A stretch of DNA of 64,000 nucleotides from Eledone cirrhosa (Eukaryota): contig OZ024760.1 in NCBI GenBank assembly GCA_964016885.1, positions 19,468,001-19,532,000 of the forward strand. Direction: 5' to 3'. Shown piece after piece: positions 36,501 to 63,156 of the stretch; the stretch's first letter is position 1; the number at the start of each line of letters is the position of its first letter. The position numbers and the translations under genes are program-made. The notes under the pieces are model-generated. The model saw only the letters and a list, made by a program, of their open reading frames with translations. It searched no databases and was not told the origin of the DNA.

Positions 36501-39500
36501 AAACACTTTACCTCTTTCATTACCATATTGCTAATGAAAGACTCTTCTTTGGGGTTTTAAGTAACATTGAAAATAACCAAGAATTTTAAGAGAATTAGTA
36601 ATATTATTAAGTTGCTATTTGGAAATAGTTATATAACAGAATCAAGAGTAGTTTTGAATGGTTTGGTACCAAAAAGGTTAATAGAACAAACTTTCTTATC
36701 TTCATCTGGGAATAATATAACTTTGATTTGAATCATGATGTTTAGTGATGGTTTAATTAGCTACTTGTTGTATATCTATCAGTTAAGTTACTATGCCATG
36801 TTCTTTAAAGTTTTTGTCGTCATATTTCTGATGAAAAACACTTTCTATGCTTTTCAAATCATTTTGAAAATAATCAAGAATTTGGAGGAATTTAGTATTA
36901 TAACTTTTCATTATTTAGCTGTTGTATGGAGGTTAACTTAAAACTTCTTCGATAAAATTACAACGAAAAGTTTTTAGTTAATCACTTTATAATAATTAGC
37001 TTAGTATTGTAGAACTAGGGTAGGTTTCAGGTGGTTTGATACAAAAAGGGTTAATTGATTATAAAACATATCTATAGAATTTATATATTTTAATAGAACA
37101 TTTTAATACTTTTTTTTATAAATCTTTATTGTTCATTTTCCCATAATATTCCAAAATAAATAATTACATATAACCTCGTTATTAATAAAAACATGCACTC
37201 AAAAATGTATTGTTCAAACAAGAAATCTATTTTTAATTTTCAAAAATCTTTCAATAGTTTCTGTTATTGTCAGGAATTATTTATAAGATCCTCAATTCTG
37301 CGTCATTAGTTTTTAGCATCTCTTCATTCTGTTTCTTGTTCATATCCCTTTGATCTGTTTGTAGTTCCATACCATGTTCATATGAATTTAGTTACAGTAG
37401 ATATGCATATTTGCATGTATACTTCTCTTCTTTTACTTGTTTTTGTCATTAGACTGTGGCCATGCTGGGGCAGTGCCTTGATTTAGTCAACCATAGTACT
37501 TATTTTTTTCATGTTTGGTATATGTTTTATAAATCTCTTTCCTGTCAAACTGCTGAGTTACAGAACGTAAACAGAGACATGGACATACACACACATTTAT
37601 ACATAAAATATATATACAACACACACACACGTGCACATATGTACATACATACACAGTTTCCGTCTACCATATTCCACTCACAAGGTATTCGTCAACCCAA
37701 GGCTATAGAAGAAGATACTTGCCCAAGGTATCTGGCAGCAGAACGAAACTGAGAACTAACTGGCTGCAAAACAAACTCCTTAACCAGACAGTCATGCTTG
37801 TAGAATATAGTAATGTTTATGCTCAGAATTCTCATCCATGCATTAAAATGGAATAGATTGTAACTACAAATGTCTTTATTTCAATTTTACATCTGTCCAT
37901 GGCTTAATCCAGTGTNNNNNNNNNNNNNNNNNNNNNNNNNNNNNNNNNNNNNNNNNNNNNNNNNNNNNNNNNNNNNNNNNNNNNNNNNNNNNNNNNNNNN
38001 NNNNNNNNNNNNNNNNNNNNNNNNNNNNNNNNNNNNNNNNNNNNNNNNNNNNNNNNNNNNNNNNNNNNNNNNNNNNNNNNNNNNNNNNNNNNNNNNNNNN
38101 NNNNNNNNNNNNNNNTTGAATTACTTGGTATATGTAAGAGGTTGTCTTTAATTAAATATATAAACCGAGTTCTGTTGGGAAAATCTTTCCTGGTTTGTAT
38201 TAAATAATAATAATTTAAAAACGAAATTCAGCTAAAATGCCGTCTAGCAAGGAATATGACATCATATAGACTTTGTTTTAACAGATAGCTTAAATGTAAA
38301 GAAAATAACTCAAAAAGCTGAATTTTGGAGAGTAACCCTTGGTATATAGCTCTCCTTTGCTGAAGGCTATAAAAAGACTGAGACCACCATTGTATTTGCA
38401 TGCTAATTCTCTGCAAACACTGTGCAGTTTTAAAAAATGTAAATATCCAAAGGCACCATTTTGCTTGGTCTGGTGAAGGAGCCAGTTTAGTCACTGACCA
38501 CTCTACCATGAAGCAGGTTGTCCTAAGTTACATTTGGTTGACTAACTATTTCCTTTTCATGCTGGTTGTCATCATGACATCTAGTATCCATGGTCCCTAA
38601 ACCTCAATTTTCCTCTGCATAATTGCAAAGAATGCATCCTACCTGAGAAAGGAGGGGCTCATGCAGCTGTTGTCACTGCCTGTCCTCTACAGCAATACTT
38701 TTGCCATCTTGTTTGCAGGATACACCCGAGATATACCACTGAGACAAGGGTGTAAAGTGTACCCTCCCATTGCCCATCCACCTTACTTCCATTATTATTT
38801 TTTGTTGGGCGGTGGATTGACAGTATCAGTAGAGGGTCAGACGCCACGCTTTGCAGCAAAGAGTTACAGCCCTTTATGGTCTGAGTTCAAAACCCGTCGA
38901 GATTAACTTTGCCTTTCATCCTTATGGGGTCGATAAAATAAAGTACCAGTAATACACTGATTTGTCCCAAACACCAACTTGATAATTAAAAAGTTAGTTA
39001 TTTTATCAAATTCTCTGAAACACGAGTCATGACTTTCATCAGAAATATAATAATGAATGGGTTAAAATAGGAAACTGCTGACATAATTATAACATTACAT
39101 TGACATTTTGTTTAGTTGAATAATTTTCTTCAAATGGGGAAATATATTTGATAAGGATACTCTGTGAATAAATTTTCGGGATTATAGAAAACTTTTATAA
39201 ACTGTATCCTCACAGAAATACTGTAGTCATTCTCTAACTGTTTGAAATTGATAGTATATTTTTATTTGAATTTATTTATGTATTAGATAATATAATTTTC
39301 ACAGGTCCACCAGCGCCTCCTGTGGACAAATTAACTGGTAAGAATTTAGCAATTGAATCAAATATTTTATATATATATACATATATATGTGTGTATATAT
39401 ATATATATGTATATATATATATATATATAACATTGTGTTCTATATATTTACCACATAATATTTCATAAATTTTATATCAATAATTGTATTTATCTTCAAA

Positions 39501-63156: not shown

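Follow-up and report, generated by a model that had tools for sequence, protein, structure and literature searches.

Analysis of the window, a 64,000-nt stretch of Eledone cirrhosa DNA (C21:19468001-19532000, within a 3.0-Gb genome), showed an array of microexons that is probably a long Pro/Val/Thr/Glu spacer within a giant secreted octopod extracellular-matrix protein, the product of a VWA module gene. What is new is the whole: a fragmented locus misnamed 'collagen VI' reads as one giant string of VWA domains, free of collagen, in which 65 repeats are homogenised and the spacer resembles PEVK. The array is of most value as the thread leading to this giant fragmented octopus matrix gene, and its first-pass annotation was partly a misreading of a real feature. 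Features within the window are listed in Table 1; positions beyond it are given in the same numbering (window frame).

All 27 islands of the first-pass annotation were recovered in place on the + strand, each in phase 1-1, free of stops and closing at G/GTAAG, with the sizes it had reported (25 of 39 nt, one of 33 nt and one of 51 nt; 353 aa in sum). The repeat consensus it proposed did not fit exons 1 and 2 of the array or one variant present in four copies. The array continued past the window, as had been expected; with 270 kb of downstream DNA added, 59 intact exons coding for 761 aa were counted (55 of 39 nt, two of 27 nt, one of 33 nt and one of 51 nt), of which 32 followed part 2 past the window. 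The array ended at window-frame 91052 (C21:19559052), 27 kb beyond the window. The call started from 62 candidates, from which three non-symmetric G/GTAAG sites with unrelated sequence were removed, and two acceptors were corrected by hand. The window contained 30 G/GTAAG sites on the + strand, 27 of them array exons, and 4 on the - strand. Over window-frame 38.2-82 kb there were 58 (+) versus 8 (-), and in the 80 kb upstream of the window 13 (+) versus 8 (-).

Table 1. Features located in the window (positions in window numbering)
Feature	Position	Strand	Remarks
First coding exon, signal-peptide-like (by eye), ends in phase 1	504..576	+	donor G/GTAAGT
Candidate 18-nt phase 1-1 microexon	1325..1342	+	AG/GTAAG sites, weak ortholog match
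21-nt phase 1-1 microexon	2851..2871	+	6/7 residues shared with O. bimaculoides isoform X1
VWA1 exon, 564 nt, phase 1-1, without DxSxS or Cys	16943..17506	+	Pfam PF00092; 81% to ortholog
Linker microexon, 33 nt	21176..21208	+	
VWA2 exon, 561 nt, phase 1-1, without DxSxS or Cys	21799..22359	+	
Pro-rich linker microexon, 42 nt	23126..23167	+	
Pro-rich linker microexon, 33 nt	24736..24768	+	matches the ortholog's VWA2-VWA3 linker
VWA3 exon, 567 nt, phase-1 donor GTGAGT at end	26575..27141	+	
Val/Thr linker microexon, 36 nt, phase 1-1	33374..33409	+	full-consensus donor; absent from the first-pass list
Assembly gap, 200 N	37916..38115	.	presumed site of unplaced scaffold C107
Array part 1, 14 microexons	39305..51293	+	first seven starts: 39305 (33 nt), 40052, 43889, 44242, 45493, 46358 (51 nt), 48073
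Array part 1, remaining seven starts		+	48495, 48692, 49275, 49604, 50129, 50691, 51255
Array part 2, 13 microexons	52578..63156	+	first seven starts: 52578, 54266, 54489, 54706, 56096, 57848, 58071
Array part 2, remaining six starts		+	58288, 59539, 61233, 61458, 61675, 63118
Dead array copy, donor lost	47316..47354	+	
Dead array copy	53025..53063	+	donor G/CTAAG; four amino-acid changes versus live relatives
Dead array copy, duplicate of 53025	56543..56581	+	
Dead array copy, duplicate of 53025	59986..60024	+	

Four dead copies were found inside the window in addition to the islands first listed. An extra copy with a weaker GTTAG donor lay at window-frame 65192-65230, and five copies had a lost splice site. 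A tandem acceptor (CAGCAG) was seen at window-frame 86637, and the same one-codon choice may underlie the 14-residue units in the Octopus models. Open frames resembling, by eye, reverse-transcriptase remnants of a LINE were present at window 7876-8181 (-) and L002:8488-9594 (-), one of them within the array tail.

The expectation that standard annotation would miss the array was not borne out, as the RefSeq models XP_036368516.1 and XP_052831912.1 contain it. O. sinensis XP_036368516.1 (LOC115223644; 4,624 aa) carries 24 units, O. bimaculoides XP_052831912.1 carries 17, and an older O. bimaculoides model carries 14. The units stand in series in all three models with VWA domains after them, and mutually exclusive exons were rejected on this serial arrangement. 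The orthologs XP_036368516.1, XP_052831912.1 and XP_052831932/933 have the same units in the same order, with about 68-94% identity in the VWA/EGF exons, and the window proteins were 69-87% identical to their Octopus orthologs. The public models are fragmentary (633-4,624 aa), their array units numbering 14-24 and their repeat VWA 0-5, whereas Eledone has 59 units and 65 repeat VWA. They are named 'collagen alpha-3(VI)/alpha-6(VI) chain' or uncharacterised, and the 'collagen VI' names are similarity labels.

Among 8,000 scored candidates shorter than 2,543 aa, one protein carried the array, the older model of the same O. bimaculoides gene. A search of representatives returned one close fragment and distant multi-VWA proteins, with no orthologs of the other domains among the 150 representatives scored. 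There are also unnamed proteins resembling collagen VI in which 14-22 VWA are partly homogenised. A search of the openly accessible literature found no description of the giant VWA gene and no papers citing six of the accessions. None of the accessions or of three short peptides was found in the accessible portion of the PMC10138644 proteome supplement or in the PMC10142993 proteome supplement. The available text of PMC10336842 describes a different octopus repeat protein, made of EGF domains.

The array had been placed directly after VWA3, but the assembly gap between them probably holds at least 66 more VWA exons. The near-identical VWA repeats that precede the array in O. sinensis were not on C21, and a genome search with them (150 of 237 candidates scored) led to the unplaced scaffold C107. 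This scaffold is 164,757 bp long with no N and contained 66 VWA exons and about 79 microexons, all on one strand. It opens with one divergent VWA and two microexons, followed by 39 A-type VWA exons with 38 linker exons of 39 nt, then 26 B-type VWA exons with 26 linker exons of 45 nt, and it closes with three Pro/Thr exons. An extra 57-nt exon was present in 10 B units. All A (39/39) and B (26/26) exons were 570 nt, open and in phase 1-1 with AG/GT sites, and the linker DNA of both types (38 and 26 matches) was found on this scaffold only. The A and B repeats have Cys at positions 3 and 189 and a within-block diversity of about 0.3%. The MIDAS-type motif (DxSxS and TDG) was present in 14/14 distinct A and B open frames and absent from VWA1-3 and the first VWA of C107.

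The O. bimaculoides model XP_052831912.1 opens with the ortholog of the first VWA of C107, then matches one of its first two microexons, and passes from matches of its last exons into the ortholog of exon 39305. Since this model spans the end exons of C107 and exon 39305, the scaffold is bracketed into the gap. In XP_036368516.1, a B-type repeat with an identical 15-aa linker stands immediately before the array. Both repeat blocks are absent from XP_052831912.1, and the A block was in no ortholog model seen. Apart from interspersed repeats, the ends of C107 had nothing in common with the gap flanks, and one or two further linker exons of the public models were not found at its end. We infer that C107 should be placed in the C21 gap at window 37916-38115; the gene would then be split in the assembly because this gap broke it apart. 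The placement would correct the assembly and indicates that most of a coding sequence can sit on unplaced scaffolds. C107:1-164757 consists almost wholly of exons of the giant VWA gene. A G/GTAAG donor lies in its last 220 bases; the acceptor is ambiguous, with the nearest strong AG at a distance of 26 nt and the next at 12 nt.

Downstream of the array there were 18 VWA, one of them truncated, and four EGF exons, and the last exon encoded an acidic tail and the stop; the VWA and EGF domains of two long ortholog models mapped collinearly over window-frame 100-176 kb. A 447-nt phase 1-1 exon for a truncated VWA (window-frame 98303-98749) is conserved in one O. bimaculoides model and absent in three other models, which makes it a candidate cassette exon. 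An intact VWA exon at window-frame 153399-153965 matched 0/4 public ortholog models by motif and is lineage-specific or skipped. None of the four ortholog models, which jointly reach the C-terminus, contained a Gly-X-Y run of 5 or more, and a transmembrane-like segment was seen in none (0/4). There was no Collagen Pfam match, the O. sinensis ortholog having only VWA and EGF families, and 0/3 were matched in NCBIfam. The idea of a stalk on a secreted VWA protein thus stood in part: the gene is a secreted VWA gene, but the array is internal, with VWA on both sides. A terminal or membrane stalk was rejected, as VWA flank both ends and no transmembrane segment was found.

With the locus joined, the predicted product is secreted and has about 86-87 VWA, four EGF and no collagen helix or membrane anchor; its length of about 18,700-18,900 aa is the sum of exon lengths (649 + about 13,670 + 768 + about 3,640 aa). 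The whole gene would have about 255-260 exons over at least 340 kb, with the order across the gap deduced rather than read. The array makes up about 4% of the predicted chain, and the gene also has about 90 long exons. The predicted protein looks like one of the largest secreted proteins of animals.

It is likely that VWA1-3 are the start of the same gene as C107 and the array. The first coding exon and the three VWA exons, all in the first 27 kb of the window, follow the same phase 1-1 linker layout. That first exon shared 87% identity with the start of O. bimaculoides XP_052831932.1, and the O. bimaculoides 3-VWA models terminate by reading through the site that matches the VWA3 donor. One gene is favoured because of this read-through and because the long model starts intron-like, without a signal peptide; it is also favoured because the strong symmetric exon 33374, the only one from VWA3 to the gap, follows VWA3, and because a cuttlefish model continues after VWA3 into a VWA of the A/B type (score 213 against a median of 134). 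No ortholog of exon 33374 was seen. The 41-aa cuttlefish segment between VWA3 and the A/B-type VWA had no match in the Eledone genome and no clear best VWA, and no model contained a direct joint from VWA1-3 to the first VWA of C107; a short isoform with just the three VWA may also exist.

Rather unlikely, though the best of the alternatives, is a division into two genes, in which VWA1-3 form a short secreted gene of their own and the giant gene starts at exons hidden in the gap; the role of the array would be the same and the protein about 650 aa shorter. The O. bimaculoides RefSeq models are indeed separate, the first stopping just after VWA3, and VWA1-3 are of another type (no DxSxS, no Cys). 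However, these models are complementary fragments, each on a contig of 37,682,611, one reading through a phase-1 donor and the other opening intron-like without a signal peptide, and both the phase 1-1 exon after VWA3 in Eledone and the extension of the cuttlefish model past VWA3 speak against the division. An unnamed protein with 7 VWA has His in place of the MIDAS Asp, as in VWA1, so tandem proteins built from this variant occur in other settings too. Degenerate (TA)n/(TATG)n intronic tracts of several kilobases with extreme GC skew were observed at window 4700-7500, 11900-16750 and 28000-30250.

The gene consists mostly of phase 1-1 modules, in which Pro/Thr microexon linkers separate VWA exons of about 570 nt; the exon phases show that duplication, loss or skipping of any one module keeps the frame. 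In the single-gene reading, the domain order would be a signal peptide, three VWA without a metal site, 66 VWA on C107 (65 of them in two homogenised blocks), the array, 17-18 VWA with four EGF, and an acidic tail. Cysteines joined end to end keep a VWA domain from unfolding, and collagen and other ligands are bound through a cation at an intact MIDAS. The 65 repeated VWA are probably disulfide-clamped, cation-dependent binding beads, because each has an intact MIDAS and one Cys at each end. Between the two multivalent VWA blocks, the array would be the sole long unstructured segment and is probably a polyproline-II, O-glycosylated spacer or spring, about 230 nm long if wholly polyproline II (an estimate at 0.31 nm per residue). 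Most array exons have Thr-Thr at the end and Ala-x-Pro at the start, an order that fits the preference of GalNAc-transferases; most skips would therefore remake the same junction and change length but little else.

If expressed in full, the protein would be a candidate scaffold, load-bearing or adhesive, for the tissues of the boneless octopus. A bolder proposal, offered tentatively, is that a single gene with about 255-260 exons over at least 340 kb encodes about 19,000 aa with about 87 VWA, a secreted chain of about 2 MDa that would rank with the longest extracellular proteins and whose length and compliance octopods may tune by tissue-specific skipping of microexons and whole VWA modules, beyond copy-number change, as an extracellular counterpart of titin.

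The array had also been likened to schistosome micro-exon genes (MEGs), with combinatorial skipping that diversifies a secreted protein as its main point. The comparison does not hold, since size, domain content and the origin of the exons all differ, and such a system is an improbable account of the array. In the accessible part of bioRxiv 2023.06.21.545858, MEGs have 10-20 exons and proteins of at most 189 aa. The systems share runs of very short exons that are mostly multiples of 3 (59/59 in the array) and a secreted product; MEGs as described there are small, schistosome-specific and not tandem near-duplicates inside a giant domain protein, whereas the array is a minor part of a huge protein of folded VWA domains and not a small microexon-made one. 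Skipping itself would be frame-safe, all 59 exons being symmetric and in the same phase. The two O. bimaculoides models differ by three whole units (14 vs 17), and three whole VWA exons are present in 1, 2 and 0 of the four public models, which fits combinatorial skipping; these differences among models may nevertheless be annotation noise, and the units are near-duplicates, so skipping alters length more than surface.

Splicing of the array exons is supported by conservation and the public models, and they are likely spliced in series with some skipping. Four sequencing runs strongly matched the locus, all from one study and none recorded as RNA. Read mapping on window 38200-51400 (runs X12, X9, X2 and X6, 85% likeness) was swamped by interspersed repeats, and none of the 15 joints shown of 2,718 was between microexons, the reads being dominated by repeats. 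One contig of run X12 continued unspliced from intron into exon 39305. Run X6 gave faint cover in five repeat-free exon-holding bins and zero in four others also holding exons.

The composition of the array was Pro 30%, Val 18%, Thr 15.5%, Ala 10%, Glu 7.5% and Lys 4%; P+E+V+K made up 59% (70% including Ala), and one 13-mer was present about 10 times. The closest working analogue is probably the titin PEVK region, outside the cell. According to the available sections of PMC6469411, PEVK has more than 100 short Pro/Glu/Val/Lys exons that are homogenised within species and often missed by annotation; its length changes by duplication and splicing, and exon number sets stiffness. Both regions have P/E/V/K-rich repeats in many short, block-duplicated exons, but they are non-homologous: titin is intracellular with Ig/Fn3 domains, while the array is secreted, Thr-rich and flanked by VWA. 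The gene does not belong with titin, the ortholog containing only VWA/EGF families and the first exon being signal-peptide-like. Taken alone, the array, already in public models, follows a design known from titin PEVK and from small exons of one phase. Domain repeats as multi-exon genomic units or same-phase small exons also occur in LPA kringle IV-2, MUC16 SEA repeats and elastin. A mucin PTS domain, which has Ser+Thr above about 40%, was rejected on the Ser+Thr (16.6%) and Pro contents of the array.

The best solved-structure matches of the A repeat were 9han_C and 4cn8_A, and its nearest solved relatives are the VWA matrix proteins collagen VI alpha-3 and mussel byssal PTMP1. Tandem VWA domains are shared with collagen VI, and membership was rejected since neither a Gly-X-Y triple helix nor a Collagen Pfam match was found. 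C. elegans DIG-1, in the accessible part of PMC1904197, is a matrix protein of 13,100 aa that contains VWA and EGF domains; compared with that description, the predicted Eledone chain is longer, and its repeated bead, present about 87 times, is the VWA itself.

Copy number in the array was labile, as first proposed (14 or 17 in the two O. bimaculoides models, 24 in O. sinensis and 59 here). Part 2 consisted of about four copies of a 3.5-kb, 4-exon block, introns included, that were 92-99% identical, and a second block of 2.4-2.7 kb with 5 exons occurred in five or more copies at 94-97% identity. From this layout, the array appears to have grown by duplication of exons together with their introns. 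In a 23-row tree, built from every distinct A and B protein, four O. sinensis B copies and seven single-copy VWA, the B copies clustered by species (support 94/83 and 95/88) and the single-copy VWA paired by orthology. The species-wise grouping of the B copies points to concerted evolution or independent expansion. Unequal crossing-over would expand and homogenise such blocks and leave dead copies, as in the pattern observed, and the locus, if expressed in full, would be a clear case of concerted evolution on three scales in one gene.

That the assembler inflated the copy numbers on C107 and in the array is very unlikely. The copies there are more than 99% identical and the scaffold was left unplaced, but the exon haplotypes (10 and 9 different ones), the variants in unit length and the 57-nt exon in only some B units argue for real copies, as do the at least five B copies in an O. 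sinensis model cut at its 5' end and the 1-8% difference among array blocks.

The one-repeat-per-exon coding array in a secreted VWA gene was confirmed by its coding signature and by the units in the ortholog models. No stops occurred in the proposed frame (0/59 exons), and the other two frames had stops in 27/59 and 33/59. Among 23 representative 39-nt units, variation by codon position was highest at the third (0.35), then the first (0.24) and the second (0.17), and pN/pS was 0.60, the pairs being non-independent. Every length variant was a multiple of 3 (59/59 exons, 27-51 nt), an internal YAG was present in 21/59 exons, always in frame, and the three duplicated broken-donor copies each had four amino-acid changes versus live relatives. 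A non-coding intronic repeat with chance splice signals, which the duplication of flanking intron with each island might suggest, is largely refuted and scarcely credible beside the protein-level conservation in two other species, the codon-position signature, the frame-keeping length variants and the extra changes in donor-lost copies.

Other VWA exon clusters in the genome were seen at C4:319.99-320.89 Mb, C1:270.9-280.7 Mb, C2:94.1 Mb and C4:1.3-1.6 Mb. The first of these has about 10 copies of near-equal score at about 14-kb spacing and is perhaps a second tandem VWA locus.
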